The notes: generated by a model from the sequence alone, not told the origin. A DNA stretch of 64,000 bases from Candidatus Iainarchaeum sp. (GCA_043803765.1 JAZDJQ010000014.1:14721-78720); one strand, 5' to 3'. Positions 17,447-58,354 are shown, counted from the first letter of the stretch. Translations and numbers: made by a program.

Positions 17447-18736
17447 CTATCTGGGTCGCATGACTTCGAGTGCTTGCTCAGGAGTCAGTTGATCTACTTT
17501 TACGTTGAGTTTGTTCATCGCTTCAACCATCGCATTCAGCACGCTTCGTATTTGCCCATTCTCCTCCTGCATTTGTGTTAATTTATCTTTGTATTCCAGT
17601 CGCGCTTCCAATGTGAGGGGATTGTTGCATTTTTTGCAAAGAAGATTCGTGAACTCATTTAGTTCACCGCAGATATTGCACAATCGTGGTTTTAGAATAC
17701 TTTCCTCGTCCTTTTCTTTTTTCCCTAATCCATAGATTTTTCGAACGGCGTCGTGAACATCGCGCCCAGAAAGATGAATATAGGTAGCGGGCATTTCACT
17801 ACCAATTTGCCAGCCCATGACCTTGCACAATTGGGCCTCCGTTAATCGTCCAGCCAAATAAGTTGCGCGGGAGTGCCTCCAGTGATGCGGATTATAGGGT
17901 TTGTTGATACCTGCCCTCGTTGTTGTTTCGTCCAGAATTTTTCGGATTGAAGCATAGGAGAGTCTTTTTCCGCGATGTACGGGAGAAACAATCACAAACA
18001 AAGGCGCATTCTTGTCATCGCGTAGGGGGTGAATGTCTAACCATCCGCGAAGAAACGGAACACTGGACACCAAAAGGACTTGCCTCATTCCGGTTTTTCC
18101 ATCAAGCATGGCTGTGGCTTCGGTTCCATCAAATTGAATTGATTTAATTTTAGCATTACCAATCTCACCGATGCGCGCACCCGTTTCCCACAAAATAGAA
18201 ATGAGCGCTTTTTTCATGGGATGATCGGCCACTTGAATGATTTTGATGATTTCGTCCTCTGATAGCATCTCTTCTGGCAGTTTGTGCGAGTTTCCGCTTC
18301 GGATGCATTTAATCCATCGGACTTGGGACGGAAAAAAGTCGTTGTCGCCCAACAACCATTTGTAAAAGGCCTTGAGCATGCGTTTGTGCATAGTTCTTGT
18401 AGTCTCCCCCCACCCATTTCGATTCACGATTTGAGAAACAAGGTGTTCAATATCTTCTCGTGTAGCGGACTCGAAATCCTTCCCGATCATTTCAGCCAAA
18501 TTAGCCATCGTGAATAATACGCGGATTCGGCGGGCAAGACTGATGCCTCCTTCATTTTCCAAATGAATTCGATAGCGTTCAATCGTGCGTTTGTTTGTCT
18601 CGCTGATAATGTACGGTTTACCCTGCTTTCCGTGCTTCTTCTCAAAATCGCGTGGATATTTTTCTGGGAAAATTCGACTTAACAATAGCTCGTAGCGTCT
18701 TTCGTAGTTATGAAAACTCGTGGCTTCTGGCGGCAT
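17447..18736 (-). CDS. int: Tyrosine recombinase/integrase with C-terminal Zn ribbon
   Basis: ETGARIGE, DGKTG, HHWRHSR, MGW, TYIH catalytic set; CNIC..CKKC; lies next to a tRNA. Confidence 0.95.
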   Translation of the reverse strand: MPPEATSFHNYERRYELLLSRIFPEKYPRDFEKKHGKQGKPYIISETNKRTIERYRIHLENEGGISLARRIRVLFTMANLAEMIGKDFESATREDIEHLVSQIVNRNGWGETTRTMHKRMLKAFYKWLLGDNDFFPSQVRWIKCIRSGNSHKLPEEMLSEDEIIKIIQVADHPMKKALISILWETGARIGEIGNAKIKSIQFDGTEATAMLDGKTGMRQVLLVSSVPFLRGWLDIHPLRDDKNAPLFVIVSPVHRGKRLSYASIRKILDETTTRAGINKPYNPHHWRHSRATYLAGRLTEAQLCKVMGWQIGSEMPATYIHLSGRDVHDAVRKIYGLGKKEKDEESILKPRLCNICGELNEFTNLLCKKCNNPLTLEARLEYKDKLTQMQEENGQIRSVLNAMVEAMNKLNVKVDQLTPEQALEVMRPR

Positions 18737-18797
18737 ATAGGCACTCCCCGTTCGGTTGGTTTTATTCTTTACGGGGGCACTTTACTGCCATCTTCAA

Positions 18798-18871
18798 TGC
18801 CTCGGGGGAGACTTGAACTCCCGGCCTCCGGGTTATGAATCCGGCGCTCTAACCAACTGAGCTACCAAGGC
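18798..18871 (-). tRNA. tRNA-Met(CAT), probably elongator (Ile2 not excluded)
   Basis: GCCTTGGTAGCTCAGTTGGTTAGAGCGCCGGATTCATAACCCGGAGGCCGGGAGTTCAAGTCTCCCCCGAGGCA folds as a cloverleaf. Confidence 0.95.
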
Positions 18872-18956: not shown

Positions 18957-19631
18957 TCACTCGTCGAATTCCAGCCGGCTTTTTACGGTGATTTTTTCTT
19001 CTCCCGCGAGTAATAATCGGTCGGCCATTCCTAGGAAGAGTCCTGTTTCTAATACTCCGGGGATGAGCCGTGCTTGCGTGTCTATTTCTTCGGGGGTTAA
19101 TCCTTCGTCTATTTCTACTTCGACTAAATAATGGCCTGATTCTGTTTTTTCCGGCTCCTGAGTGTATTGGGCGTGCCCTACTCTTCCTATTTGTTCTAAT
19201 AATAGTAGTGTTCTTTTCCATCCGAATGCGCTTATTTCGAATGGGACTTTTCCATGTAGTTTTTCAACGTACTCGTTTTCGGGGAGTATGGCAATGAGTT
19301 CGGCTGCGGATTGGGCAATCATTTTGTCTCGTATAAGTGAGAGAGAATAGCGTTTGATGAACGAGTAATCGTGATCGGCTTGTCCTACAAATTCGATGGC
19401 TAAATCTACTTCTCTTTCATTGAGCGTGGTTAAGGGTAGATGAAATGTTTGGGCGGTCTGTACTTGGCTGGTGGATGTGGGGATAATGGTTATTTCCCAT
19501 TTTTCCTTTTCGCATAATAATCCTATTTTTTTGAGTAATAATTCCCCTAATTGGTTTGTTCCTACGGCAAGTACTTGGTCTTTTTTCACATATTTGGATA
19601 TGAATGCGTCAATCGTGTCTTCGGATAGCAT
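18957..19631 (-). CDS. rpiA: Ribose-5-phosphate isomerase A homolog with degenerate catalytic motifs
   Basis: IPTSTSQ, DKMIAQSA, PFEI, TESGHYLV, IPGVLETGLF match RpiA; GTGST, DGADE and KGGG are altered. Confidence 0.8.
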   Translation of the reverse strand: MLSEDTIDAFISKYVKKDQVLAVGTNQLGELLLKKIGLLCEKEKWEITIIPTSTSQVQTAQTFHLPLTTLNEREVDLAIEFVGQADHDYSFIKRYSLSLIRDKMIAQSAAELIAILPENEYVEKLHGKVPFEISAFGWKRTLLLLEQIGRVGHAQYTQEPEKTESGHYLVEVEIDEGLTPEEIDTQARLIPGVLETGLFLGMADRLLLAGEEKITVKSRLEFDE

Positions 19632-19684
19632 ACTGGTTGAGCGTAGCGTAGTGGGGAATTTAAGGGAATTGGGAAAAAAAGGGA

Positions 19685-19710
19685 GACCCGGCATATGAGC
19701 GGCCGGGTGC
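19685..19710 (-). terminator. Hairpin followed by a T-run after the micropeptide genes
   Basis: ACCCGGC...GCCGGGT stem followed on the minus strand by CCCTTTTTTT. Confidence 0.5.
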
Positions 19711-19740
19711 AAAAGGAATGGTTGGGCTTTGTCCGCGGCG

Positions 19741-19827
19741 TTATGCTCGGCGGGCTCGGCGTCTTGTACTGGAGCGGCGAGCGCTGGATTCGCGTGATGC
19801 GCTGGCTCTTGCTCTTCGTGCTGCCAT
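19741..19827 (-). CDS. 28-aa Arg/Ser/Ala protamine-like micropeptide
   Basis: MAARRARASASRESSARRSSTRRRARRA; SD GGAGGATGA 6 nt upstream. Confidence 0.7.
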   Translation of the reverse strand: MAARRARASASRESSARRSSTRRRARRA

Positions 19828-19905
19828 GATGTTTCATCCTCCTTTTGTTTTTTTTTGTTGGTTCCGGTCGTGCCGGAAAAAAGGGTCCATTCCGCGTCTT
19901 TTTTC

Positions 19906-19968
19906 TTATCGCTTCTTGGACTTTCTTGCTTTATGAGCTGCCTTATGGGCTGCTTTCTTTTTTGGCAT
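19906..19968 (-). CDS. 20-aa Lys/Ala histone-H1-tail-like micropeptide
   Basis: MPKKKAAHKAAHKARKSKKR; SD AGGTGA; TATA TTTAAATA at 20041-20048 (minus strand). Confidence 0.7.
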   Translation of the reverse strand: MPKKKAAHKAAHKARKSKKR

Positions 19969-20216
19969 TGTGTGTCTTCACCTTTTCTTCGAGACCGAAA
20001 ATTTCGAAAAATTTTCGTTATTTGGTATGATGCGTTGTGCTATTTAAAGGTGTGTCTAAAACAAGCGTTTTGTTTCTGAGAAAAAAAATAATCGAACGAG
20101 ATGAATGTCATGGAGCCGCGTATTCGCTTGACAAAAAAAGTTCCATGATGAACGAATTTCGTGCAGGTGGGAATAAGGAAGATGAGCAGTAAATAGAACG
20201 AAGACTTTCTGCTGGT

Positions 20217-21066
20217 ATGGTTACTCGAGCGAACATGACCCGGGGGAAAGGGTGGAAGGGTATCGTGAGCGGGGACATTCGGATTCACTCCATTGGACCC
20301 TTGGGGAGACCCACCAAGTCGAGACATGTATTGAAACCCGGTGCCTCGGCGCATGCGATGGTGAAAGAGCACCCCTTGGGTCATCGGGGGATGATTCCAC
20401 AGATCTCGGCTAGGAGTATTTTGGCCCGGCTGGGGGTCCAGGTCCATTTTTCTCAAGAACAGATCAGGGAATTGGTCTCAGGGGATCTTCCTCGGCAAGT
20501 CACTCTATCTCATTCGGGGCATATTCCCATCCAGATCCGCCGGGGTAATCGCACCCATCGAGTGTATTATCCCAATCATTCATTATCCGTGGGAAAAAAG
20601 GAGGCAAGGATATTGCTGAAACGGGGGGACTTGGTTCTCGGCAATGATTTCAAGTGGCTTCCTTCCGGGATGCTCGAATTGACCCCGCATGCTGTAGTAT
20701 ATGAGATTCCTAGGAGTGATATTGCGACTCTTTCCAAAATCAATTGGGCTACTGGAAGCAAGCGAAAAGTGTTGATGCAGTACCTCCAGAGGAAAAAAAA
20801 ACCTCTTCGGACGGATTTAGGTAGGATTGTCTTGACCGAGTGTAAGTATGTCAAGCTCCCCAACGGTGGGAATGCTCCTCTTAGGGTCTACGGATGGGAC
20901 TTCACAGCACATCCATTCCTGCTTCATTGATCCGGGGTATGAGGGTTCTATTGTTCTGGAGCTTTTGGGATTCAAGGAAAATGTGAAGCCGGAGAAGATT
21001 CTCGTCCGGCTTATTCGTCCGGTAGATGGGAACCTAATACCAAGGTCTGCCCAGAGGAAAAAATGA
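20217..21066 (+). pseudogene. dCTP-deaminase/dUTPase-fold protein, frameshifted near 20870
   Basis: IVLTECKYVKLP in one frame and HSCFIDPGYEGSIVLEL in the next. Confidence 0.55.
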
Positions 21067-46256: not shown

Positions 46257-47642
46257 CTATTTTTCTCCAAAGAAGGCCTTGAGGGCAGGATGCATGTCCA
46301 TCAGCTGGGCTTTGGCCAATTCTTCGTATAATCGGTATACGATTCCTACGGCGAGTAATACCCCTGTTCCGGATACGAGAGAGGCGACTGTAATATCGGA
46401 TAGGCCGGCGAGTAACCCTACAAAAATGGACCCTAGAATCGTGACTTGGGGGATGTAGCGGTCAAGCACTTTTTGCATAATCCTCGGGTCTCGTCTAAAT
46501 CCCGGAATGCTCATCCCGCTTCGGTCGAGTTGCTCCGATACGGCTTTGCTTCCTTGCCCGCCTAACTCGATCCAGAATTTTCCAAATACGACACAGGCAA
46601 GTACGAGTAATACCAAATAGACGATGGCCTGCACCACTTCCATAGCGGTTGTGGATGTAATTCCCAATGTTAATAGTCCTTCAATAAGTGAAAATCCTCC
46701 TCCTACTCGTGGGGGTTGTGTTGCCCAAGAGAGGCCTGAGAAGAGCGTGTTGAGGTAAGGTATTCCTGCGGTGAGGGCGGCCCATAATTGTACGTTGGCG
46801 AATAAAGCGGCGGCGAGAATCACGGGCATGTTGCTCACGTAGAGGAATTTTACTGGAAATCGTCCTCCTGCTCCTGTTTGTCCCATGGCAATGGGAATGT
46901 TTACATGCATTCCTTCGGCAAATACCACTCCGAGGAAAATGAGGATAACAAATAGAATAGGAACAAGTCCTACGAATGCACTGTATGCGTTTCCTTCGAT
47001 TAGGGATTGTGCAATGGTAAATATTCGTCCTGCGCTTCCAAATGCGTCAGCAGGTCGGAAGACTTGCCAGAAAAACCCTTGGGCGACTCCTCCTGCAATG
47101 AATAATCCTATTCCGCTTCCAATTCCCCATTTTGAAACCATTTCGTCTAAGTATAACAGGACAATACTTCCTATGGCAATTTGAAGCATGACAAATGGAA
47201 ACATTCCTTCTCCTGCTTGTAGGAATCCTACTCCGGGTATGCCAAACCCAAGAAATGCGGCTCCTTCAAAGAAAGAAAGAATAATGGCGAGTAATTTTTG
47301 GGTGCTGGTAAAACGTGCTTTGTTTTCTGGGATGGATAAATCTATCTTTAGAAATCCTCCTCCTACAAGTAATTGCAGAATAATGGATGCTAACACAATG
47401 GGTCCAATTCCTACTGTGATGAGCGACCCGATATCGGATGCTAAAATGGTTTGGAGCGCTTCCACTTGTTGAATGGACTGTCCCGTGAGTCCGATTAGTT
47501 CAATTTGACTCATGGAAAAGAATAGAATGAGTGCTGCTGCTGAATAGAATATGCGGCGCATGAGCGGGGGGCTTGTTTCCGGTCGGCGAACCTCGGGTAA
47601 CATTTTGAGAATGGGGTCCAGCTTCGCGAAGACATCCACCAT
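46257..47642 (-). CDS. secY: Preprotein translocase SecY
   Basis: LPEV..P, GIGPIV, KWGIGSG, YVSNMPVI, IPGFRRD. Confidence 0.98.
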   Translation of the reverse strand: MVDVFAKLDPILKMLPEVRRPETSPPLMRRIFYSAAALILFFSMSQIELIGLTGQSIQQVEALQTILASDIGSLITVGIGPIVLASIILQLLVGGGFLKIDLSIPENKARFTSTQKLLAIILSFFEGAAFLGFGIPGVGFLQAGEGMFPFVMLQIAIGSIVLLYLDEMVSKWGIGSGIGLFIAGGVAQGFFWQVFRPADAFGSAGRIFTIAQSLIEGNAYSAFVGLVPILFVILIFLGVVFAEGMHVNIPIAMGQTGAGGRFPVKFLYVSNMPVILAAALFANVQLWAALTAGIPYLNTLFSGLSWATQPPRVGGGFSLIEGLLTLGITSTTAMEVVQAIVYLVLLVLACVVFGKFWIELGGQGSKAVSEQLDRSGMSIPGFRRDPRIMQKVLDRYIPQVTILGSIFVGLLAGLSDITVASLVSGTGVLLAVGIVYRLYEELAKAQLMDMHPALKAFFGEK

Positions 47643-48127
47643 TATGCATCGCCGTCCCGCAGTGAAGGGTCGTTGACTTTCGTCTCGCCCGCATCTGCAT
47701 TGAATGTGTCTTCAATTTCTCCCTCGGCTTCTTCTATTTTTTGCCGGGCTTTTTCACTTACTTTAATATGGCGAATATACAAGTTTTCGGGAACAATTCC
47801 CGATCCTAATAGTTTGGATACTCCTACTTTTCTTCCATCAATAATCCATAATCCGTCTTCTTGTACTATTTTTCCTTGGTCTGCCCATTTGGGCAGGTAG
47901 GAAGCAAGTTGGGAAACATTAATAGCGATCCCTTTCGTTGTGCGTGGGTTTTGTCTTACTTTGACACCGAATGTTGCATGGTATTTAGAGAACTTGTGTT
48001 TGTGGCTTCCTGCTTTTCCTCTTCCTCCGCGGTTCCCTGCTCCACGTCTGTTCTTGGTGTCGCCGTGTCCGTGCGTCCGCTCTCCTCGTTGCTTGTTTCG
48101 GGTTGTTTTTTTGCTTCGAACGACCAT
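47642..48127 (-). CDS. rpl15: 50S ribosomal protein uL15
   Basis: RGERTHGHG..RGAGNRGGRGKAG. Confidence 0.96.
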   Translation of the reverse strand: MVVRSKKTTRNKQRGERTHGHGDTKNRRGAGNRGGRGKAGSHKHKFSKYHATFGVKVRQNPRTTKGIAINVSQLASYLPKWADQGKIVQEDGLWIIDGRKVGVSKLLGSGIVPENLYIRHIKVSEKARQKIEEAEGEIEDTFNADAGETKVNDPSLRDGDA

Positions 48128-48139
48128 TTTTTCACCTTT

Positions 48140-48598
48140 TTACATCATGCTTGCGAGGAGTGCATCCATTCCTTCTGGATGAAAACCGAGCGGTCCTTTT
48201 AATGTGACTGGTTTCTTTGTCCCTTTTCTTCCGAATCCCTTTCGCGGTGCATTGAGCCGGAAAACGGGTTTGATTCCTATTTTAGATAGTGTTGTTTTCT
48301 TTTCACTCATATCGTTTGCGAGCGCGTCAAATGAACTAATCTTTTTTTCTTTCAAATAGTCAAGAGTAAGCGCCTTGTCTCCTTCAATGTGTCCTCTTTT
48401 TTGTAGAAGCTTGGTTAGTGTTTCTTTTTTCACGTTTCCGTACGCCACATAGTCTTTTACTTTTGTAAGGATTCCTTCCATTCCTTTTTCTTGGATAATC
48501 ACGCAATGGTTTTTCCTATCCAAGTTGAGTGTGGCGAGCGCGGCTTGAATATCTGCTCGCACATGCTTGAGTCCACGAATACGTATAATGGCGAACAT
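48140..48598 (-). CDS. rpl30: 50S ribosomal protein uL30
   Basis: AIIRIRG, VKDYVAYG, PVFRLNAPRKGF. Confidence 0.96.
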   Translation of the reverse strand: MFAIIRIRGLKHVRADIQAALATLNLDRKNHCVIIQEKGMEGILTKVKDYVAYGNVKKETLTKLLQKRGHIEGDKALTLDYLKEKKISSFDALANDMSEKKTTLSKIGIKPVFRLNAPRKGFGRKGTKKPVTLKGPLGFHPEGMDALLASMM

Positions 48599-49440
48599 TA
48601 TGCGTGTCCTCCTTTGGTTAGTTTAGTATGAATATCGGGGGATGCGCGCATTTGGTTTAATCGTTCTAATGCATTATAGGCTGCACGTATATAGTTGAGA
48701 CGGGTATCGCTGCTTCCAGTAGTGCGTCCCCATACGTCCGTGATTCCTGCAAACCTGAAAACGTCTTGGATTTGTTTTCCTACTACTAATCCTGTTCCTT
48801 GAGGGGCAGGAGATAATGTTACTCGTACGGAACCGCATTTTCCAGTAATTTTGAATGGCACGCTTCGTGTCGTATCGGAATAGTCTTCCCATGAGCCTGA
48901 CCCTACTCGTACGGGTATGAGATTAAGTCGTGCTACTCGTGAGGCTTTGCGTATTGCCCCGTATCGTTCCTTATCCGACCCTAGTCCTAGTCCTAAATAT
49001 TTTTTTCCATCTCCTACTAATACGTAGGCGGAGAAGTTGAAGCTTCTTCCGGCGGCACGAACATACGTTGTCTTTCGCGTATCGAGTACTTTTTCGGTTA
49101 GGTCGGGTACAAGCGTGTCAATAATCTCTGATTCTAAAATGGGGACGTTTCGTGCCCATAATTCTTCCATAGTTGAAATCTCTCCTTTTTGAACTAGTTT
49201 TCCTGCTTCGGTTTTGGGATTCCATGCTTGTAATGCGGATTGTCGATCGCGCTGTTCGCTTGTGAGTGGAGCGGAAGCTTCCATTTCTTTTAGTTGTTCA
49301 TCCGTTAAGAGTTCTTTTCTTGGTAGTTCTCCTGATCGTCCGCGTCGCATTGGGCCGCGTGAACTATTGCGTGTGTTTCCTCTTCCGAATGGTTTTCGAG
49401 GACCTCTTCCTCTAGTACTAGGTGATCGTGATCCCATCAT
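48598..49440 (-). CDS. rps5: 30S ribosomal protein uS5
   Basis: WNPKT, GSGSWE, GKCGSVRV..PAPQGTG. Confidence 0.96.
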   Translation of the reverse strand: MMGSRSPSTRGRGPRKPFGRGNTRNSSRGPMRRGRSGELPRKELLTDEQLKEMEASAPLTSEQRDRQSALQAWNPKTEAGKLVQKGEISTMEELWARNVPILESEIIDTLVPDLTEKVLDTRKTTYVRAAGRSFNFSAYVLVGDGKKYLGLGLGSDKERYGAIRKASRVARLNLIPVRVGSGSWEDYSDTTRSVPFKITGKCGSVRVTLSPAPQGTGLVVGKQIQDVFRFAGITDVWGRTTGSSDTRLNYIRAAYNALERLNQMRASPDIHTKLTKGGHA

Positions 49441-50018
49441 GCGTTTCCGCCCTCCATTATTTCTTTTTTGGCCAATTCAACCGTTTTGGTGAATGCGCGG
49501 GTATCTATTTTTTTTCCTGCGTATGTGGAGAATTGGTTCGTATTGGTTTTTGAGGATGCGTGCTGGGCAAACTCTTCTATGTGTTTTCCTGTTAATCGTC
49601 CTTCTTTTGGGAATGAGGTGGTATCGGCGTGTACGGTGACACCGGCGTCTTGTATTCCTTTTACTGCGGCAAACAATCGTGTTCCTAGAACGGGTGGCTG
49701 TACTCCTAAATCAACAATGATTTCTTTTACATCCTTTTTGAGCATTCGTTTTCCTGCAAGTAACCCGGTAAGGTAGGCGGCAGGAATATTTCCCCCGTGT
49801 CCGTTGTACGAAAACTTTCCTAATTCTTTTGTGTGGGCCGCTGCGATTATTTTGTCTTTTCCTTCGGTAGATTTGACGCATTGAATGTTCATGTGATTCG
49901 TTGATTTTCGTATCACTGCGCGTGAAAATCCGCTTTTTAGGAAAGCCAATCGTTTAGTGTAATTGGTTCTTCCTTCCGCTCGGCGTCGGAATGGTTTCAG
50001 ATAGGTGCTGGTACTCAT
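49437..50018 (-). CDS. rpl18: 50S ribosomal protein uL18
   Basis: FRRRAEGRTNY..AAYLTGLLAG. Confidence 0.96.
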   Translation of the reverse strand: MSTSTYLKPFRRRAEGRTNYTKRLAFLKSGFSRAVIRKSTNHMNIQCVKSTEGKDKIIAAAHTKELGKFSYNGHGGNIPAAYLTGLLAGKRMLKKDVKEIIVDLGVQPPVLGTRLFAAVKGIQDAGVTVHADTTSFPKEGRLTGKHIEEFAQHASSKTNTNQFSTYAGKKIDTRAFTKTVELAKKEIMEGGNA

Positions 50019-50461
50019 TTCGCTTCCCCCTGAACGGTTTGCTCTAAATGTTTCTTTCCTCTAAAGTGGTTTCCTTTTACTTGGCGATAAAGCGTGCGAT
50101 ACGTTTGGGTGACTTTTCCTTCTTTTCTTAGCTGGCGCAGTGTTTTTCGTAGTGCGCGTACTCGTGTAATCCATTGTTTTCTTGGTTTGGAGCGTGCTTT
50201 TTTTGTCCCGGTGCGTTTTCCTTTTCCTGTTTTTCTTCCCAGTCTTTTTTTTGCGTGCAGGATGCGTGCTCCTCCGCGTGAGTGGTGTTGGTCCTTTCTT
50301 TTTCGTACAATGCGTTGACTGATAAGATTGCGCACATCATCTCGTGTCATGGCTTCCGCTGCTTTGGTCATTTGGTCGGGGTCCACCCAGATTTTGGACT
50401 CTCCTACTTGCATGATTTCGGCAGCCATTCTTTTTAGTTTTCTTGGATTCATATCATTCAT
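50015..50461 (-). CDS. rpl19e: 50S ribosomal protein eL19
   Basis: KRMAA..KIWVDP, TRDDVR, YRTLYRQVKG. Confidence 0.96.
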   Translation of the reverse strand: MNDMNPRKLKRMAAEIMQVGESKIWVDPDQMTKAAEAMTRDDVRNLISQRIVRKRKDQHHSRGGARILHAKKRLGRKTGKGKRTGTKKARSKPRKQWITRVRALRKTLRQLRKEGKVTQTYRTLYRQVKGNHFRGKKHLEQTVQGEAK

Positions 50462-50465
50462 TCCT

Positions 50466-51110
50466 TTAGTTCAGTACATGGATTTTCTTCTCGTTTGCTA
50501 GTTGGATGAGTTCGATTCTCTTTTTTCTCCCAATAGTAGATGAAATTCGTGCTGCGTGAGTGGGTTGAATCATTTCGAGGTCTTTTTTTGTGTAGACCAT
50601 TATTTCACGGTAACCGGATGGGTGTATTCCTCGTGTTGCTTTGGGTGTGCGATAACCCGTGTTAACAACTGCTCCATCGTCTCGGCGTTGCTGCATGTCT
50701 TCTCCTCTTGGTTTTCTCCACTTGTCATACTTTTCATTTTTTCTCGTTCGAATATTTTTCTTTCCGAATCGTCCCCAAAATACTGGTTTCCATTTATTGG
50801 ATAATAATTCCATTATGTTTTTGGCTTCTTTTGTTTTAACTACTTTAATCTTTTTCACCCATACTGCTTTGGCTCCTTTCTTTTTGGCGGGCTTTCCTGA
50901 TAGGGCTTCGGTTTTATTTTTTTCTTCTTTTTTCTTTTTCTCTTCTTTTGTTTTAGGCACTTTTGGCAGAGTAGTCGCAGAACCACTCGTATGAATATGA
51001 GTGGTAGAAATGGGTGCCTTTCCTTCTATTTTGGTAGTTATTGGTGTCTCTTCTTTTGCGGGGGGGATTGTTTTCATGCTGGTCTTCTCGCTTTTTGTTT
51101 CGTTTGTCAT
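50466..51110 (-). CDS. rpl32e: 50S ribosomal protein eL32 with long N-terminal extension
   Basis: WRKPRG, GYRTP..RGIHPSGYRE. Confidence 0.93.
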   Translation of the reverse strand: MTNETKSEKTSMKTIPPAKEETPITTKIEGKAPISTTHIHTSGSATTLPKVPKTKEEKKKKEEKNKTEALSGKPAKKKGAKAVWVKKIKVVKTKEAKNIMELLSNKWKPVFWGRFGKKNIRTRKNEKYDKWRKPRGEDMQQRRDDGAVVNTGYRTPKATRGIHPSGYREIMVYTKKDLEMIQPTHAARISSTIGRKKRIELIQLANEKKIHVLN

Positions 51111-51655
51111 GCGGTTTCCCCCTTCTCAGTGATATAAATTCCATCTTGGAATACGCGTTGGTCCTTTTTTGTGTCCCGCGTTGCTTTTTCAAGATTGGCT
51201 GCTGTTTGGGATACTTCTTCAATATTATTTCCCGATACTGTAATCTCTTTTCCTTTTACTTCTACTTTTGTTTCTCCTATAATTAGGGATAAGCGCGGGT
51301 TTTTTTCTCCTAAATAATTGGCAATTTCCACGTGTTTTTCTTTTACTTTAATATTCATTGGAAAGTGGGAGTGAACAACTGCTAGTTTGTATTTGAATCC
51401 TTTTTCTAGTCCTGTAATGAGATTTCGTATGTGTGCGGCATGGGAACGCATTGTTGCAATAGTGAATCGTCTTTTGTTGAGCGGAGTTATCGTGATGGTG
51501 TTCCCCTCGCTTCTAAGTGTGACTTCGGGGGCGACTAGTTTTTTGGATACATTTTTCCCATTTTTGGTGAGCGTGAGGACTCCTCGTTCATAGGCGGGAG
51601 TGATTCCGGCTGGAATCGTTACTTTTTCGACTGTTCTTTCTGCCATAATAATCAA
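51107..51655 (-). CDS. rpl6: 50S ribosomal protein uL6
   Basis: HSHFPM, NYLGEK, DQRVFQDGIYI. Confidence 0.96.
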   Translation of the reverse strand: MIIMAERTVEKVTIPAGITPAYERGVLTLTKNGKNVSKKLVAPEVTLRSEGNTITITPLNKRRFTIATMRSHAAHIRNLITGLEKGFKYKLAVVHSHFPMNIKVKEKHVEIANYLGEKNPRLSLIIGETKVEVKGKEITVSGNNIEEVSQTAANLEKATRDTKKDQRVFQDGIYITEKGETA

Positions 51656-51672
51656 CTTCTTAGGGTATGTTT

Positions 51673-52065
51673 TTAGTAGATGTAGGCGAGTAGCCTTCCT
51701 CCTATTGATTTTTCCTTGCTTTCGGCGTGAGTCATCACTCCTTGGGAAGTGGACACGATAATCGTTCCAATGTCCCGTGCAGGGAGGAATCTTTTTTCAT
51801 ACCTTTCAAAGTCATCCTTTTTGACGGCATAGCGTGGCTTGATAGCCGCCACCTTGTTTATTTTTCCCTGTAATCCTACAGTATAGAACGTCTTGTGTCG
51901 TTCTTTCACTACTTCGAAATCGGCAATATATCCTTTTTCTTTCATGACGCGAAGTATCTCGTGAATGAGTTTGCTTCCCGGTTTTACGATAACTTTCCGT
52001 TTGGAGGCGTTCTCGCTATTTTGGATGCTGACCAGCGCGTCTGCGATTGGATCGATTTGGCTCAT
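51673..52065 (-). CDS. rps8: 30S ribosomal protein uS8
   Basis: DPIADAL, IVSTSQGVMTH..GGRLLAYIY. Confidence 0.97.
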   Translation of the reverse strand: MSQIDPIADALVSIQNSENASKRKVIVKPGSKLIHEILRVMKEKGYIADFEVVKERHKTFYTVGLQGKINKVAAIKPRYAVKKDDFERYEKRFLPARDIGTIIVSTSQGVMTHAESKEKSIGGRLLAYIY

Positions 52066-52082
52066 GTTTTTTCACACCTCCA

Positions 52083-52277
52083 TTAGCTATACTTCTTAAA
52101 TCCCATCATGGGAGCGAATTCCTTGAAACATCGCCTGCACAAGTTAATGCCATATTTGTGGACCATTCCCTTGTTGTTGTGACAGTTCAAGCAGTATGCG
52201 TTTCTTCCCGTCTTGGGTCTCTTTTTTTGTTGGGCTTTCATTTTGGCTTTGTTTTCGTTTATCATATGTTTGCTCAA
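52083..52277 (-). CDS. rps14: 30S ribosomal protein uS14
   Basis: CLNC..KYGINLCRRCFKE..GFKKY. Confidence 0.96.
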   Translation of the reverse strand: MSKHMINENKAKMKAQQKKRPKTGRNAYCLNCHNNKGMVHKYGINLCRRCFKEFAPMMGFKKYS

Positions 52278-52283
52278 CTTCCT

Positions 52284-52823
52284 TTACATTTTCTCCATTA
52301 CTTTCACGTTGAAATTTTCCTGCATGTAGGCAATCGACTCGTCTCGTGTGATGCGGTGATGTATTCCTACTTTTGCAGGACGTAATCGTCTTTTCTTTAC
52401 ACGAAAACCCGGCCTTTCAAGTGTTACCAGTACATCAAACCCTCGAATTCCAAGTTTAGGGTCATATTTTGTTCCGGGTAAGTCAATGTATTCTTTAATT
52501 CCAAACCCCACGTTTCCATTTTTGTCAAAGTATCGTTTAAGGAGCGTGTTTTCCTTTGCTTGGAGTGCATTCTTGAGGAAGTTTTTTGCTTTTTCTTTGC
52601 GCAGGGTTACTTTTACTCCAATGGGTAGTCCTTCACGAATTCCCCATGTTGGAATTTTAACTTTGCATTTGGTCTGCACAGGTAATCCTCCTGTGATTTT
52701 TTTGAGAATCTCCCCTGCTTTTTGTAACGGTTCCCCTGTTTGTCCTACTCCCATGTTTACAGTTACTTTTTCTAATCGTATTCCTCGCATGGGATTGGTT
52801 TTCTTTTCTTTTCCGGTTGTCAT
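52284..52823 (-). CDS. rpl5: 50S ribosomal protein uL5
   Basis: NPMR..KVTVNMGVG, FGIKEYID..YDP. Confidence 0.97.
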   Translation of the reverse strand: MTTGKEKKTNPMRGIRLEKVTVNMGVGQTGEPLQKAGEILKKITGGLPVQTKCKVKIPTWGIREGLPIGVKVTLRKEKAKNFLKNALQAKENTLLKRYFDKNGNVGFGIKEYIDLPGTKYDPKLGIRGFDVLVTLERPGFRVKKRRLRPAKVGIHHRITRDESIAYMQENFNVKVMEKM

Positions 52824-53560
52824 GCTGTCTTCTCTCCTTCCATGTGAGTCTTAATCCATTCAGCCGTTTCATCATCAATCATCATGACATTTTTTGTAGT
52901 GGTTTGAAATGTTGTCTCTCCTTCTGACAAATCAACAAGTGCATCGCGTTTCATTGTTCCTTTGATTACGTGGGTGATTTTGGCTATTTCTCCTACGTGT
53001 GTTCCGCCAATAATGAATACGCGCCCTCCTTTCTTGAATGAAAGATGCCCTTCTACTTGTTGAGCGTCTGTTTTCACTAAAACGGAGTCTCCTACATTCA
53101 CTTCTTTTGGAACATTTTCGTATGTTTTTCCATCGTGTGTCTGGATGATTGTTTTTCCTTTCGCCACGATTTTCTTCCGGATTACCTTAACGGGTTTTAC
53201 TAGTGTTGAATGAGTGAGTTCGTGCACGGTCATTCTTCCATAGGTATCAAGGGATAGTCGGTATGTTTTCTTGGTCGCGGGTACCATAATCGTGTCAAAT
53301 AAGCCAACTGGAAACTGGTATTCTTTGCGTGGTTTTCCTTCTACGATGATTGCTCCTCGTGCAAGCAGTTGTTTTGTTTCGTGCATTGTTTTGGATAATG
53401 CCAGCATGTCTCGGACGAGCATTCCGAGTGGAATGCTTGTCTTCGTTGTATGCGTGCCGGGCATTGTTTTGATAGCCCATACGTGTGTCTTCCGTTTCAG
53501 GTAACGAATAGGGTTTGCGGCCACGCGTTTTTGTCGATTAAGATGTCCTTTTTTTGCCAT
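52820..53560 (-). CDS. rps4e: 30S ribosomal protein eS4
   Basis: PGTH..SIPL..RDML, FPVGLFD, THDG, IGGTHVG. Confidence 0.96.
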   Translation of the reverse strand: MAKKGHLNRQKRVAANPIRYLKRKTHVWAIKTMPGTHTTKTSIPLGMLVRDMLALSKTMHETKQLLARGAIIVEGKPRKEYQFPVGLFDTIMVPATKKTYRLSLDTYGRMTVHELTHSTLVKPVKVIRKKIVAKGKTIIQTHDGKTYENVPKEVNVGDSVLVKTDAQQVEGHLSFKKGGRVFIIGGTHVGEIAKITHVIKGTMKRDALVDLSEGETTFQTTTKNVMMIDDETAEWIKTHMEGEKTA

Positions 53561-53566
53561 GCTTCG

Positions 53567-53974
53567 TCACTCCTTTTTTTCTTCTCCCTTTGTTTGTTTA
53601 GCGTCTTCTTTCGCTGTTGGGATTTCTTTCCCTTTTCGTTTGAATCGTTTCTTGTCTTTTGTTTCTATTCCCGTAATGAGCACGTTGCTTGGTTTGAATG
53701 CGATGAATGCTTCTTTTCCATCTGTTTTCTTGCGCATAATTCCTTGAATGAATAATTTGTTTCGGGCATAATCTACTTGCGTGATGTTTCCTGTCTTTCC
53801 TTTGTAATCTCCCCGCGTGACTTTTACCGTGTCCCCTACTCGTACAGTAGTTGTGCGTTTTCCATATTTGGAACGCAGTTCTTTTGCGAGTGAAGCGCTC
53901 ATTAATTTCCTTTGAGTGCGTAAATCGGCATGGTAGATAGCCAATCGTTGTTTTCCGGGGTTGCGTGTGACCAT
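53567..53974 (-). CDS. rpl24: 50S ribosomal protein uL24
   Basis: PGKQR, VRVGDTVKVTRGDYKG. Confidence 0.96.
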   Translation of the reverse strand: MVTRNPGKQRLAIYHADLRTQRKLMSASLAKELRSKYGKRTTTVRVGDTVKVTRGDYKGKTGNITQVDYARNKLFIQGIMRKKTDGKEAFIAFKPSNVLITGIETKDKKRFKRKGKEIPTAKEDAKQTKGEEKKE

Positions 53975-53987
53975 TATGTTTCTCTCC

Positions 53988-54386
53988 TTATACGATTCCT
54001 GCGGATATTCCCGCAATTTTGGGAAAGCGTTCCCCTACTTCTTTGGCGATAACACCTTTCACTTCGGACGCTTTGGGCAGTCCTTTATCATCTACTAATA
54101 CAACGGCGTTATCTTCAAATTTGATGCGTGTTCCGTCTGGGCGCTTGTATTCTTTTTTTACTCGTACGATTACTGCGCGTTCTACTTTGCTTCGGATGGC
54201 AGGTTTTCCTGTTTTCACCACGATATTCACCATGTCCCCAATTCCTGCAGATGGCTGCATTCTTTTTCGTGCCGTGTGGCGGAAAACGGAGATGATTTCG
54301 ACTTCTTTTGCTCCGGAGTTATCCGTGCAGAAGCAGCGGGATTTCTTCGTCAGGCCTTTTGTTACGGATGCGCTGATGGCTTTCAT
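53988..54386 (-). CDS. rpl14: 50S ribosomal protein uL14
   Basis: DNSGAK, RPDGTRIKFEDNA. Confidence 0.97.
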   Translation of the reverse strand: MKAISASVTKGLTKKSRCFCTDNSGAKEVEIISVFRHTARKRMQPSAGIGDMVNIVVKTGKPAIRSKVERAVIVRVKKEYKRPDGTRIKFEDNAVVLVDDKGLPKASEVKGVIAKEVGERFPKIAGISAGIV

Positions 54387-54769
54387 TCGGATTCCTCCGC
54401 TTTGGCTTCTTCTTTAGCGTGTTTCAATTTCGTTCCTTCTTTCATTTCTTCGTGTTCCGGTTCACTTTGGGAGTGGCCGAGTATTTCGGTGATAACGAAT
54501 GCTTTGGTCTTGCTTATTTTTCGTGTTTCTCCAATGCGTACAATATCATTTTCTTTTGCATTAATCCATTCGGGATTGTGGGCATGGACGCGGGAGCGGA
54601 GCTTCTTGTAGCGCTCGTACTTGGATACATATACCACGATTTCTCTTTCAACGGTTACAGTCTTGGGTGCTTTTGCACTTATGACTTTTCCTACGAGTGA
54701 GTTGCCCCGTACAGGATAGTATTTTCCATTTCCTGATGTTTGAGTAGTTGTTTTCGTTTTTTTAGGCAT
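54383..54769 (-). CDS. rps17: 30S ribosomal protein uS17
   Basis: KYERY..HAHNP..GETRKISKTK. Confidence 0.96.
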   Translation of the reverse strand: MPKKTKTTTQTSGNGKYYPVRGNSLVGKVISAKAPKTVTVEREIVVYVSKYERYKKLRSRVHAHNPEWINAKENDIVRIGETRKISKTKAFVITEILGHSQSEPEHEEMKEGTKLKHAKEEAKAEESE

Positions 54770-55064
54770 AGAGTGTATTCCCCCCGTTCTTGAGTCGTTC
54801 GATGGGTGTGTACAGCATTTTTTTTCCTTCGAGTATTACTTGTTCGTTTCCCAGTGTGAATGCAAATGTGTTTTCGTTCTTTGGAATGGTCTTTATTCCA
54901 TTTGTTGTTTCAATGGAGAATGTTCGTTGTGTCTCATCAACGATGATTCCATTAACTCCTTTTTTGGATGCATCCGTGCTTTTTTCTATTTTTACGGCAA
55001 GTCCGATGAGTTCGTGGATGGGAAGTCTTTCCCTTGTTATCGTGTATTTTTCTGTTTTAATCAT
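54762..55064 (-). CDS. rnp1: RNase P protein component 1 (Rpp29)
   Basis: HELIGL..GIIVDET..IPK; conserved operon position. Confidence 0.93.
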   Translation of the reverse strand: MIKTEKYTITRERLPIHELIGLAVKIEKSTDASKKGVNGIIVDETQRTFSIETTNGIKTIPKNENTFAFTLGNEQVILEGKKMLYTPIERLKNGGNTLYA

Positions 55065-55356
55065 GGATTGAATTCTCCTTGAACCCTTCTTGGATGAGTA
55101 TTTTTTTTACTTCGATTCGGTGGTTTCCCTGCAATTCGATTTTCCCGTTTTGGATTGTTCCTCCGCACGCGAGTTTGGTTTTCAGGGTTTTAGCCACTTC
55201 TTTTGCAATGTCCGCATCCAGGCCTTCGACGATGGTGATGTATTTTCTAAACCTTCGTTGTTCGGTCCGAATTGTTATTTTTTGGTTTTCCTTTGCAATC
55301 TGTCCGCAAACACAGATGTTTTTAGGCAGGCCACATGTGGCGCACATTGTTTCCAT
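55057..55356 (-). CDS. Translation initiation factor aIF1 (SUI1)
   Basis: CGLPKNICVC, LKTKLACGGT..IELQGNH. Confidence 0.95.
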   Translation of the reverse strand: METMCATCGLPKNICVCGQIAKENQKITIRTEQRRFRKYITIVEGLDADIAKEVAKTLKTKLACGGTIQNGKIELQGNHRIEVKKILIQEGFKENSIHD

Positions 55357-55358
55357 CC

Positions 55359-55580
55359 CTAGTTTTTCACCTCATTCGTTTTTTTTATTTCGTCCGCACG
55401 ATTAAACGTGTGAATACGTGCAATATGTCTCCGGATATTCCGTGCTTTTCCCGGGCTCTCGGGCCGAGTATTAGTTGATTTGACTGCATTCTCTGCTGCG
55501 AGCTCATTCTTGAGTTCCGTGAGTTTTCGTATGCGTTCGTTCACGCTCATTTTTCGGAGGTCATTCAGTTTCTTGTTCAT
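55359..55580 (-). CDS. rpl29: 50S ribosomal protein uL29
   Basis: LRKMS..PGKARNIRRHIARIHT. Confidence 0.93.
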   Translation of the reverse strand: MNKKLNDLRKMSVNERIRKLTELKNELAAENAVKSTNTRPESPGKARNIRRHIARIHTFNRADEIKKTNEVKN

Positions 55581-56332
55581 GATGCGTCCTCTGTTTTGTT
55601 TTCAGTAATGGGAATTTCTTCAATGATTGTTTGCTCGATTTTTTTAGCCGTTTCTTCTACAACGTTGGGAGTGATAACAACTGTTTTTCCTTCTGATGGT
55701 GTGATGGTTTCAGCAGCACTTGTTTTTCTATCAGCAAAAGTCTGTTTCATGTCAATCTTATCCGGGAAGAATACTCCGGGTCGGATGATTCGTACGATTA
55801 CTCCAATTGCCCCTACTTTTGGATAGGTGGTTACCTTGGCTTGGTCCACTAATTGCACTTGGTCTCCCACTTTTTTCATATATCCTTTGGCGAATCGTAC
55901 TTGGCGTTTTCGACCGCCTTTTCCTGCCAGTTTTCCCGAGAGAACGATTTCAACCCCAACGGCTCCGGCACGTTCAATGTCTTGTAATGTTCTGAATGCT
56001 ACGCTTCTCCATGCGAATCCTCGTTCAATCATGCTTTTCATTTTGTCGGCGACACTCTTCGCATCCAAGTCGGGTTGTGTGATTTCCTTTATTTCGATCT
56101 GGGGGTTATCTACTCCGTACTGGCTTGAAATGGTTTCAGTGAGAGAACGGATATTTTGCCCTCCTTTTCCAATAGCTAATCCGGGCCGGGAAACGTTCAC
56201 TACAATGCGTGTAACAAGGGGGGTTTTGACCATTTCGAATCCTGTAAAACCTGCACGGTTGAGTTCTTTCTTCAAATATTGATGAAGCTGTACCTTTTTG
56301 AGGGATTGCTTCACAAAATGTTTCTCATTCAT
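55577..56332 (-). CDS. rps3: 30S ribosomal protein uS3
   Basis: RPGLAIGKGG KH domain, GVEIVLSGKL. Confidence 0.97.
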   Translation of the reverse strand: MNEKHFVKQSLKKVQLHQYLKKELNRAGFTGFEMVKTPLVTRIVVNVSRPGLAIGKGGQNIRSLTETISSQYGVDNPQIEIKEITQPDLDAKSVADKMKSMIERGFAWRSVAFRTLQDIERAGAVGVEIVLSGKLAGKGGRKRQVRFAKGYMKKVGDQVQLVDQAKVTTYPKVGAIGVIVRIIRPGVFFPDKIDMKQTFADRKTSAAETITPSEGKTVVITPNVVEETAKKIEQTIIEEIPITENKTEDAS

Positions 56333-56805
56333 GTTCTTACCTCCCTCACGATGACTTCAATGTGCGTGCTCTTTGCTTTGCGTGATTTTCCTGAAATGCG
56401 TCCCTGTGCTTGATTGGTTGTGCGTTGAAATCCTTGGTTGGCGGTTGCATGAATCACGCGTAATTTTTTAACGTCGAGTCCTTTCACATCGGCGTTGGCG
56501 CGCACCGTGTTAAGCAAGTTTAACCATACTTGGCATGCACGTTGAGGGTAGCGTCCTGCTTTTACTCCGCTTACTGCGTTTCCCCTTCGGTGCGGAACCT
56601 TCTTATTGTATGTTCTCAATGGGAGGGGTATTTTTTGCTCGATAACATTGTGCAGGAATAATTCTCCATCCTGAATGAGTTTTCCCTTTAATGCGCGTGA
56701 TATTTCAATGCTGTATTTCAAACTGGCAGGTTGATTCGTTGAATACGCGCGTGCCATTCGGGAGTCGTCCCATTTTCCAAGATAGTTATAGGTTGTTTTG
56801 ACCAT
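56329..56805 (-). CDS. rpl22: 50S ribosomal protein uL22
   Basis: HRRG..GRYP, NADVKGLD, THIEV. Confidence 0.96.
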   Translation of the reverse strand: MVKTTYNYLGKWDDSRMARAYSTNQPASLKYSIEISRALKGKLIQDGELFLHNVIEQKIPLPLRTYNKKVPHRRGNAVSGVKAGRYPQRACQVWLNLLNTVRANADVKGLDVKKLRVIHATANQGFQRTTNQAQGRISGKSRKAKSTHIEVIVREVRT

Positions 56806-56817
56806 GTTGATTCACCT

Positions 56818-57219
56818 TTACTTTGCCGTCACCGCGGAGCTGCTCTTGGTGCTTCCTAATCCTGCTTTTCCGTGCCGGACTTGCTTCCGTGTTAAGACAT
56901 ATTCTCCAAGGCGGTGGCCCATCATTTCGGGTTGTATTTCAAATTGTTCGAATGAGTTTCCTTTGTATACGGCCATCTTTAGTCCTACCATTATTGGCAT
57001 AATAACAAATTGTCTCAAATGCGTTTTAATTGGCTTGGTTTGGGGTTTTCCTTCTTTGATTTGTGTATGAATAGTGGTTATTTTTTCTAATAGGTGCGCA
57101 TTCACTCCTCTTTCGAGTGAGCGTCGTGAACGTGCACTTGTTAGTTTGGCAAACTCTTCTATTTTCATTTGCTGCAACTCTCCGATGCTTTTTCCCATGT
57201 AGGTGTATTCTTTTGCCAT
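56818..57219 (-). CDS. rps19: 30S ribosomal protein uS19
   Basis: IKTHLR, PEMMGHRLGE, GSTKSS. Confidence 0.97.
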   Translation of the reverse strand: MAKEYTYMGKSIGELQQMKIEEFAKLTSARSRRSLERGVNAHLLEKITTIHTQIKEGKPQTKPIKTHLRQFVIMPIMVGLKMAVYKGNSFEQFEIQPEMMGHRLGEYVLTRKQVRHGKAGLGSTKSSSAVTAK

Positions 57220-57233
57220 TCGTTTTCACTCCG

Positions 57234-57959
57234 TCAGTTCTTCTTTTTCCTTCCTGTTCGCTTGGACGCAATAGCACCTACCTTTCGTCCAGCCGGTGCA
57301 CTTCGTGCCGTGGACTTGGACTTTCCGGGGTGGTGCTGGCTTCCACCAAATGGATGAGCGTTGGGGTTCATGGCCACACCGCGTACAATGGAATGGTATT
57401 TTTTCTTTGCTTTTTTTGCGTGGTGTTTCTTTCCTGCTTTTACAAATGGTTTGTCCACGCGTGTCCCGCAGGATACGCTTCCAATGGTAGCACGTGCATC
57501 GGGATGCACGCGAATCGTTTTGGTACTTGGAAGTTTAATGAGAACGTTTCGTGCTTCTTTTGTGACGACTAATCCAAATACGCCGGAGCCTCGTACGAGT
57601 TTTCCCCCATCTCCCGGTCGTATTTCTACATTGAATACGGGGGCGCCTTCTGGAATGTATTTTACGGGGAGAATATTTCCTATTTCGATGCGTGCATCTT
57701 TTCCTAATTCTACTCGTTGTCCAATGTAGATTCCTTCTGCGGCGAAATTGTACATCGTTTGATTATTCTCTAATGTGATGCGTGCCAATGCTGCTGTTTT
57801 CGTTGGGTCGTTCACGATATCCACCACTTGTCCAATGATTTTTCCTTCTCGCTGTGCTTCGTTGAATGGTGAATACTCTACATCGGCTACCCCGTGAAAG
57901 CTGGCGCGAAAACGATTGCTTCCTTTTCCTCTTCGTTGAAGGATGAGTCGTTTACCCAT
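57234..57959 (-). CDS. rpl2: 50S ribosomal protein uL2
   Basis: QRRGKG, PGDGGK, VRGVAMNPNAHPFGG. Confidence 0.98.
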   Translation of the reverse strand: MGKRLILQRRGKGSNRFRASFHGVADVEYSPFNEAQREGKIIGQVVDIVNDPTKTAALARITLENNQTMYNFAAEGIYIGQRVELGKDARIEIGNILPVKYIPEGAPVFNVEIRPGDGGKLVRGSGVFGLVVTKEARNVLIKLPSTKTIRVHPDARATIGSVSCGTRVDKPFVKAGKKHHAKKAKKKYHSIVRGVAMNPNAHPFGGSQHHPGKSKSTARSAPAGRKVGAIASKRTGRKKKN

Positions 57960-57960
57960 G

Positions 57961-58353
57961 TTAGATAACCCCTAGTTTGGCCGCGAGTTCTTCGGCCTTG
58001 TATTTCTTGTTCAATTTCACCGTGACTTTTTTTCTTCCCCGCATATCGTTCACAATATTTATTTTTTCTACTTTAACATTGTATACTTTTTCTACTAGTT
58101 TTTTGATATCGGATTTGGTTGCTTTTTCAGTAGCAATGAAGGATAGTTTGTTCTCTTTTTCAATGAGCGTAATCGCTTTCTCTGTCATGAGGGGGTATTT
58201 TAACAATCCAAAGTCCTCTAATTCGAGGGAGAACGCCTTGGTTTTCTTTGTTTCTGTTTTACTTGTTTTTTCGGGCGCGGCCTCGGATTTCGCTTTTGCC
58301 TTTTCTTCCATTTTGGCTTCCATTACATTGGCCGTCATGGATTTATCTGACAT
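57961..58353 (-). CDS. rpl23: 50S ribosomal protein uL23 with N-terminal extension
   Basis: YPLMTEKA..ENKL.F..ATKSDIK. Confidence 0.95.
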   Translation of the reverse strand: MSDKSMTANVMEAKMEEKAKAKSEAAPEKTSKTETKKTKAFSLELEDFGLLKYPLMTEKAITLIEKENKLSFIATEKATKSDIKKLVEKVYNVKVEKINIVNDMRGRKKVTVKLNKKYKAEELAAKLGVI

Positions 58354-58354
58354 G

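Follow-up and report, generated by a model that had tools for sequence, protein, structure and literature searches.

Conserved, unannotated polycationic micro-genes in Iainarchaeota: a two-gene cassette upstream of rpiA encoding candidate nucleic-acid-binding peptides

Introduction

Protamines and the other Arg-rich nuclear basic proteins of sperm evolve fast and retain their composition rather than their sequence. Conservation of composition alone characterizes disordered polycations with polyanionic partners, the tails of linker histone H1 among them. Tiny ribosomal proteins, such as eL41, Thx, bS22, and bL37, instead fit fixed pockets in rRNA and are conserved position by position. The present analysis concerns a cassette of two micro-genes, open reading frame 1 (ORF1) and ORF2, which encode predicted Lys/Ala-rich and Arg/Ser/Ala-rich peptides and stand upstream of rpiA in Candidatus Iainarchaeum sp., a DPANN archaeon (Iainarchaeota). 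The stretch of DNA analyzed, hereafter the window, comprises 64,000 nucleotides (nt) (GCA_043803765.1, JAZDJQ010000014.1:14721-78720; G000:C14:14721-78720 in the numbering used here) of a genome of ~1 Mb, assembled as 1,022,810 bp in 19 contigs and 93% complete. Positions are counted from the first letter of the window; related genomes and loci carry G and L numbers.

In the part available of a review of archaeal histones, Diapherotrites are described as histone-bearing and H1 is mentioned for eukaryotes only. In open-access full texts and preprints, a literature search found no description of protamine- or H1-tail-like peptides standing alone in archaea or DPANN. The two peptides described here resemble such polycations in composition and in presumed physics, and by the sequence criteria applied they belong to none of the protamine, H1, Hc1/Hc2, or eL41 families.

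A two-gene cassette with archaeal expression signals

ORF1 (19906..19968 including the stop codon, minus strand) encodes a predicted micro-protein of 20 residues, with 8 Lys, 2 Arg, and 5 Ala and no acidic residue. ORF2 (19741..19827, minus strand) encodes one of 28 residues, with 11 Arg (39%) and a single Glu, and has a GC content of 65% in a genome of 43% GC. Each reading frame is led by a Shine-Dalgarno (SD) sequence on the same strand, AGGTGA at 19978..19983, 9 nt before the ATG of ORF1, and GGAGG at 19838..19842, 10 nt before that of ORF2. Both are complementary to the 3' end of the 16S rRNA of the same genome (...GGATCACCTCCT). Across the genome, a strong five-nucleotide SD precedes 10% of 673 long ORFs, compared with 2% at an internal control position; SD use is real, yet limited. 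A TATA box, TTTAAATA with the core TTAAATA, can be read upstream of ORF1 (20041..20048, minus strand). A GC hairpin, TTCCGG-loop-CCGGAA (19862..19878, minus strand), separates the two ORFs, and a terminator consisting of a hairpin (CCCGGC..GCCGGG) followed by T7 closes the cassette (19674..19707, minus strand). The TATA box, SD sequences, ORFs, hairpins, and terminator all lie on the minus strand at the positions given by a first-pass annotation of the window. That annotation did not contain an A/T-rich inverted repeat of 22 nt with a 9-bp stem, recognized from sequence and folding near the expected transcription start (19996..20017, minus strand). A scan for sigma-70 promoters and intrinsic terminators listed none of these sites; its models are bacterial and not relevant to an archaeon.

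The cassette occupies a 585-bp gap on the minus strand between rpiA and a divergent gene (20217-20930). The rpiA gene, encoding ribose-5-phosphate isomerase A (18957..19631, minus strand; Pfam Rib_5-P_isom_A, E 5.3e-28), lies outside the micro-operon and serves here as a synteny anchor. It has a TATA-like TTAAAT of its own (19658..19663, minus strand) 32 nt before its ATG, forming a separate and probably leaderless unit. Read from these signals, the cassette is one predicted bicistronic unit, distinct from rpiA.

Conservation within the genus

Anchored on rpiA, the locus could be followed in 15 of 17 genomes of the genus, the two without a match being 86% and 79% complete. An Arg/Ser ORF of the ORF2 type (21-32 residues) is present in all 15 loci, with GGAGG ahead of it in every case, and a Lys/Ala ORF of the ORF1 type (11-34 residues) in 13 of the 15, with GGTGA or GGAG retained; across the homologues, the ATG and the SD are kept. 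The first-pass annotation had proposed searching for conserved short ORFs upstream of rpiA in relatives, and within the genus this expectation is borne out. In G012 and G004, the ORF2 homologue lies further upstream, with other DNA intervening before rpiA. A DNA search of 40 relatives matched the region in genomes of the same genus; one further match, in G020 and outside the family, was dropped once recognized as the end of a 202-residue ORF. A filter combining composition with an SD found no such ORF in the 1.5 kb upstream of rpiA at 68 distant Iainarchaeota loci (rpiA identity ≤51%; ~95 kb scanned, one strand), so the conserved pair goes far beyond chance. Linkage to rpiA is confined to the genus.

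The putative expression signals are conserved along with the frames. All 13 aligned promoters carry TTAAATA unchanged, 71-92 nt ahead of the ORF1 start codon. Downstream of ORF2, all 15 sequences have a GC hairpin with a T-rich run, and a TATA-like box for the downstream gene is found in 14 of 15. An A/U-rich hairpin near the expected start site folds in 15 of 15 sequences, although the stem sequences differ, and so long a perfect stem arises in ≤5% of shuffles for 10 of 13 (mean 7.9 bp compared with 4.3). The inverted repeat is probably a hairpin at the 5' terminus of the mRNA; an operator would be the other candidate. As an order-wide feature of the 5' untranslated region (UTR), such a hairpin was rejected: only 4 of 25 loci pass the same ≤5% shuffle threshold, and significance is limited to the genus. 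The GC hairpin between the ORFs is present in 8 of 13 spacers, with differing stems, and missing from five short ones (47-62 nt). In most members of the genus, a C-rich motif (CCCAA or CTCCCAAT-like; 19715-19735 in the window) follows the stop codon of ORF2 at a distance of a few bases, and it could conceivably pair with the GGAGG of ORF2.

The two loci without ORF1, in G015 and G008, keep the promoter, and a long structured leader (-41.5 and -45.5 kcal/mol) takes the place of the missing frame. These leaders (L035 and L036) span 160-190 nt from the TATA box to the ORF2 start and retain the first A/U hairpin; the two genomes are the most divergent in the genus. The strongly folding leader may represent a different regulatory solution.

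A wider class of polycationic micro-genes

A looser filter applied to both strands of the 1.02-Mb genome gave 21 matches, three of which are low-complexity polycations: ORF1, ORF2, and a third, ORF3 (G000:C13:31006-31149, minus strand), predicted to encode an Arg/Thr/Ala-rich peptide of 47 residues and equipped with its own TATA box, GGAGG, and terminator. A DNA search of the genus returned 10 of the 16 other genomes for ORF3, and an ORF of this type (32-71 residues, Lys + Arg 44-59%) is present in 11 of 11 loci, its own included. G003 carries a further, 60-residue copy, and G017, of the sister genus, a stand-alone Arg-rich gene of 23 residues with TATA and GGAGG, away from rpiA.

Beyond the family, a loose pattern (SD, Met-Ala-Ala, and two basic-type codons) has matches in 54 of 196 genomes of the order. 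The 30 loci listed come exclusively from other families; a Lys-rich micro-ORF of 10-59 residues is present in 22 of them, and the remaining eight comprise three EF1A genes, three copies of a conserved 51-residue protein, and two long proteins. The 51-residue protein, which starts MAAKKPFGGY and has two Cys (L137, L145, and L146 in G116, G139, and G113), is unrelated to the polycations. A tight pattern, SD plus MAAKKK, occurs at 25 sites in 24 of 215 genomes of the phylum, and every site begins a Lys-rich ORF of 10-38 residues; the reversed pattern gives no match in the same 215 genomes. The pattern is narrow, with no match in 19 genomes from other orders. Two single-contig genomes are informative. 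In G019 (839,632 bp), from a family without a pattern match, a strict composition scan yields exactly one hit, a 23-residue Lys/Ala ORF with GGGGTGA and TATA. In G015 (1,048,949 bp), a member of the genus, the Arg/Ser and Arg/Thr genes are accompanied by a 16-residue Arg-rich candidate and by no convincing Lys-rich cassette, two Lys-containing ORFs (11 and 13 residues) having no TATA-like motif within 200 nt. By composition and signals, putative Lys-rich micro-genes occur in at least nine families of the order, and Arg-rich ones only in the family to which the window belongs.

All of 10 examples tested (30-71 residues) are missing as exact sequences from a collection of 15 billion proteins, and a 15-sequence ORF2 profile had no match among 1.84 billion representatives. 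None of five candidates scored in a search for homologous proteins with ORF3. A hidden Markov model of ORF2 run against 151 genomes recovered only three of the 15 other genomes of the genus and missed its own; because it overlooks known copies, its negatives elsewhere carry no meaning. A protein atlas offered unnamed clusters only, as leads (scores of 0.92-0.93 with an ORF1 homologue as query and 0.81 with an ORF2 homologue). The two ORFs that the first-pass annotation placed below its ORF-track cutoff are upheld as genes: both are conserved, unannotated, and furnished with archaeal promoter, SD, and terminator signals.

Signs of translation

Codon usage separates the micro-ORFs from the bulk of the genome. 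Of 170 Arg codons in ORF1 and ORF2, ~3% are CGT, CGG, or AGG; the share of these three is 39% across 377 long ORFs of the genome and 18% across a reference of 20 genes for ribosomal proteins together with EF1A. The comparison sets related species, pooled, against the reference set of one genome; in the genome's own three micro-ORFs, the three codons account for 4 of 33. The Ala codon GCG is similarly depleted (4-7% in the micro-ORFs, 21% genome-wide, and 12% in the ribosomal-protein/EF1A reference). By these counts, the codon choice of the putative genes resembles that of ribosomal-protein genes. Ser is encoded from both the TCN and AGY families and Arg from both CGN and AGA, which places the low complexity at the level of the protein rather than of a DNA repeat. 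In ORF1 homologues, AAG supplies 58% of 127 Lys codons, compared with 23-26% in the genome. Across 25 Lys-rich ORFs of the order, the longest A-run averages 7.0 against the 11.1 expected from local codon usage, and in 13 of the 25, runs as short arise in ≤2.2% of simulations. Long A-runs cause slippage of polymerase and ribosome. Their avoidance matters only if the frame matters and therefore supports translation. The median ratio of nonsynonymous to synonymous differences (pN/pS), 0.37 for ORF1 (78 pairs) and 0.71 for ORF2 (105 pairs), adds weak evidence, the alignments being short, saturated, and protein-guided.

That the frames are chance ORFs or parts of an open non-coding RNA is strongly disfavored and scarcely credible. 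Both lie under gene-caller cut-offs, both escape profile searches, and the base composition of ORF2 departs from that of the genome, all of which such an explanation would accommodate. It does not accommodate the conservation, SD, codon, and A-run evidence, nor the empty control sets, namely the 68 distant loci and the reversed pattern. In addition, no conserved RNA pairs are predicted for ORF2 in 14 sequences, and its single-sequence folding z-score is +0.58. The general marks of a translated small gene, a conserved start, SD, and frame together with codon-level signs of selection, are all present. Sequence thus indicates that ORF1 and ORF2 are real, conserved, translated genes.

Genomic neighborhoods

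The position of the micro-genes is constant within families and different between them. In the genus, the unit lies upstream of rpiA. In one family (five loci, L149, L150, L153, L154, and L157), a Lys-rich micro-gene sits between the genes for the large and small subunits of DNA primase, and in another (L148), just upstream of priS; these primase-associated micro-genes have their own TATA and terminator. A third family (eight loci) has the unit adjoining a gene for a KaiC-like ATPase, a fourth has it between DUF63 and a methylase gene, and in a fifth, it adjoins folate genes or an eL41-like gene. In L150, L154, and L157, priS has its own TATA-like box behind the Lys-rich ORF. The promoter and terminator carried by each unit, the separate boxes of the downstream genes examined, and the differing neighbors mark the micro-genes as independent transcription units rather than leaders of one gene.

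This arrangement bears directly on whether the frames are regulatory leader peptides or upstream ORFs, with translation of their Lys- or Arg-rich codons acting as a sensor of charged tRNA or a cause of ribosome stalling through which the terminator and rpiA would be regulated. Attenuators do have a similar layout, in which a terminator hairpin and a same-strand gene come after a short ORF, and two Lys-rich ORFs, of 27 residues in L152 (G168) and 10 residues in L158 (G149), stand 25 and 62 nt before a same-strand gene for a RimK-like ATP-grasp ligase. Unlike the target of an attenuator, however, rpiA has its own promoter, with a like motif in nearly every sequence of the genus, as does priS at the three loci named. 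Downstream genes vary by family, and other DNA intervenes before rpiA in G012 and G004. ORF3 and the G017 gene stand alone, stalling-prone poly(A) runs are avoided, and folds of the genus sequences contain no alternative antiterminator pairing. A leader function is accordingly regarded as highly improbable.

Other neighbors are recorded as observations in their own right. Given the adjacency to the RimK-like gene, one may ask if the peptides are substrates of such ligases. In G019, an extremely acidic ORF of 64 residues with an Asp/Glu-rich tail (L215:18803-18997, minus strand) ends 47 nt before the Lys-rich micro-ORF; an acidic partner was rejected as a general feature, a small acidic ORF being found in only 1 of 46 other loci. 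Within the window, immediately downstream of rpiA, a tyrosine integrase gene (17447-18871; Phage_integrase, E 8.7e-17) adjoins tRNA-Met (18798-18871). At 47642-60267 on the minus strand lies the main ribosomal-protein operon, from L3 to L15, in which Pfam confirms 20 genes; it supplied the highly expressed reference for codon usage.

Composition without sequence: candidate polyanion-binding peptides

The predicted net charge is about +10 for each of ORF1 and ORF2 and more than +20 for the Arg/Thr type. The peptides have no hydrophobic residues, signal peptide, or amphipathic face. In the genus alignments, columns are on average 47-53% identical, and past Met-Ala hardly any position is invariant; within this one genus, lengths range over 11-34 (ORF1), 21-32 (ORF2), and 32-71 residues (ORF3). 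At E values up to 10, hmmscan of both peptides against Pfam-A found no family and phmmer against the chains of the PDB no match. As deduced from these alignments, composition is conserved, and sequence and length are not. Conservation of composition alone, together with variable length, favors bulk counter-ions to nucleic acid. It is about an even chance that the products are abundant, disordered polycations binding DNA and/or RNA non-specifically.

Comparison with known polycations is instructive on both sides. Like protamines, the ORF2 and ORF3 products are short, predicted to be disordered, and Arg-rich with interspersed Ser or Thr, and their composition persists where their sequence does not. 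Unlike protamines, they match no Pfam family at E values up to 10 (Protamine_P1 and P2 included), ORF2 has less Arg and no long Arg tracts, and the genes are prokaryotic, SD-translated, and co-exist with histones, with DNA binding here a prediction. The ORF1 type is a low-complexity polycation of Lys/Ala(/Pro/Thr), as are the linker histone H1 tail, Hc1/Hc2, and AlgP. ORF1 and 13 homologues share the Lys/Ala richness of the H1/H5 tail, a likeness of composition that confers no membership: 20 residues leave no room for the winged-helix globular domain (Linker_histone), no Pfam match was obtained, and these are stand-alone archaeal peptides of 10-59 residues without a globular domain. Nor do Hc1/Hc2 profiles match; the nearest named atlas cluster, at 0.84 with HC2 on 20% of its members, falls below the 0.9 threshold for a lead. 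The likeness to H1 tails and protamines drawn in the first-pass annotation therefore stands for composition (Lys/Ala, Arg/Ser) and fails for homology to H1, Hc1/Hc2, or protamines, given the lack of any Pfam match.

The main rival is that the products are lineage-specific, ribosome-bound micro-proteins threading into rRNA in the manner of eL41, Thx, bS22, and bL37. Those proteins, too, have 20-35 residues and >40% Lys/Arg, are missed by annotation, and are probably highly expressed, so that size, charge, strong expression signals, and codon preferences like those of ribosomal-protein genes would all suit. Possession of a single Lys-rich micro-gene in single-contig G019, and of such genes in many families, has the look of a core gene, and in L141, the Lys-rich ORF adjoins an eL41-like gene. 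According to the part of the source available, bS22 and bL37 were themselves overlooked until cryo-electron microscopy. The micro-ORFs nevertheless differ in having no position-specific conservation, in varying in length even within the genus and from 10 to 59 residues order-wide, and in their dispensability, the Lys type being missing from single-contig G015. No unit lies inside a ribosomal-protein operon, and neither peptide matches the Pfam eL41 model (PF05162, with a Trp-containing basic core) at E values up to 10 or any PDB chain. A better eL41 candidate exists elsewhere in the genome (G000:C11:51984-52046, plus strand; region 51918-52058), with a Trp-Lys-Trp basic core and 13.7 bits, below the cut-off of 22.3. 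Taken together, a ribosomal role appears unlikely. The eL41-like ORF lies ~1.1 kb upstream of the 16S rRNA gene (C11:53163-54658), and in G048, a similar ORF of 42 residues (L141, minus strand, about 1194-1322) neighbors the Lys-rich micro-gene.

In the favored reading, we infer transcript ends, abundance, partner, and role along the following lines. The TATA promoter would drive a bicistronic transcript, probably beginning with the hairpin; the two SD-led ORFs would be translated, and transcription would stop at the hairpin and T-run ahead of the separate rpiA promoter. The small, unstructured polycations so made would bind nucleic acid electrostatically and non-specifically, acting as bulk counter-ions that neutralize or compact DNA and/or stabilize RNA, as do H1 tails, protamines, and polyamines, and they would do so alongside histones. 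Loss of the Lys type in G015, where the Arg types are kept, suggests that the types are interchangeable or redundant.

Histones, Alba, polyamines, and polyphosphate

All 18 genomes of the family have histone genes, and the peptides therefore do not replace histones. The first-pass annotation had gone further in proposing a dedicated two-peptide module for protamine-like DNA condensation in ultrasmall or dormant cells, switched by Ser phosphorylation. The compositional analogy is real, the genome is small (1.02 Mb), and the conserved inverted repeat in the 5' UTR could be a regulatory site. An obligatory pair is contradicted by the distribution of the genes: the Arg/Ser gene occurs alone in G015, G008, and G017, the Lys-rich gene alone in other families, and ORF3 at another locus. 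Histones are retained throughout the family, and dormancy, phosphorylation, and a preference for DNA have no support in the sequence. Such a module is considered distinctly improbable.

A search for the Alba domain (PF01918) drew a blank in all 18 genomes of the family, a single-contig one included, whereas 18 of 23 genomes of other families have it, and its absence coincides with the appearance of the Arg-rich genes. These distributions allow a broader proposal, advanced tentatively and, on balance, doubtful: a gene-encoded oligocation system, with oligo-Lys peptides order-wide and Arg/Ser and Arg/Thr peptides added in the family without detectable Alba. Such peptides would be the cell's bulk counter-ions for nucleic acid and would fill roles that belong elsewhere to polyamines, Alba, or histone tails, perhaps tunable by phosphorylation of Ser and Thr. 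They would provide a minimalist packaging of chromatin or RNA for ultrasmall cells, parallel in a prokaryote to protamines and H1 tails.

Several observations weigh against bulk nucleic-acid binding and its extension to the order. The link to Alba is a single evolutionary event, and in three Alba-less genomes of other families, a narrow search pattern detected no Arg-rich ORF. Spermidine synthase exceeds its cut-off in only 9 of 41 relatives, and the family does not stand apart from the others in this respect; being patchy across the order, it does not discriminate. ORF1 of the genus is grouped with the order-wide Lys-rich ORFs by composition, and such sequences cannot prove homology. The pooling of species in the codon comparison counts here as well. 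The pN/pS of ORF2 is near neutral and would imply little positional constraint, and ratios of this kind are biased when low-complexity sequences are aligned under protein guidance. Finally, nothing in these sequences separates DNA from RNA or the ribosome as the partner.

Targets other than nucleic acid have also to be weighed, namely anionic membranes, polyphosphate, or, after export, a host or competitor attacked by cell-penetrating or antimicrobial peptides. Peptides rich in Arg are able to pass through membranes, and DPANN archaea often live in association with a host. The peptides themselves have neither a signal peptide nor a hydrophobic or amphipathic face, and their conserved neighborhood has no secretion or immunity genes. 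For polyphosphate, a precedent exists in the H1-like AlgP, which organizes polyphosphate granules according to the part of the source available. PPK1 and PPK2, however, were not found in the genome (93% complete), which makes polyphosphate an unlikely partner. Any of these other targets is thought very unlikely.

Implications

An SD, a start codon, and extreme Lys/Arg content without hydrophobic residues together constitute a recipe for finding such genes. At only 10-30 residues, the peptides put the hypothesis of nucleic-acid binding within direct reach of tests with synthetic peptides. Should that hypothesis hold, for which the chances seem evenly balanced, they would be a known kind of molecule, the polycationic nucleic-acid-binding peptide, found in an unexpected domain and form. 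If the peptides are made, they would constitute an abundant class of archaeal proteins invisible to annotation pipelines. Either outcome, if true, would be new: protamine- and H1-tail-like polycations acting beside histones in archaea, or lineage-specific ribosomal micro-proteins.

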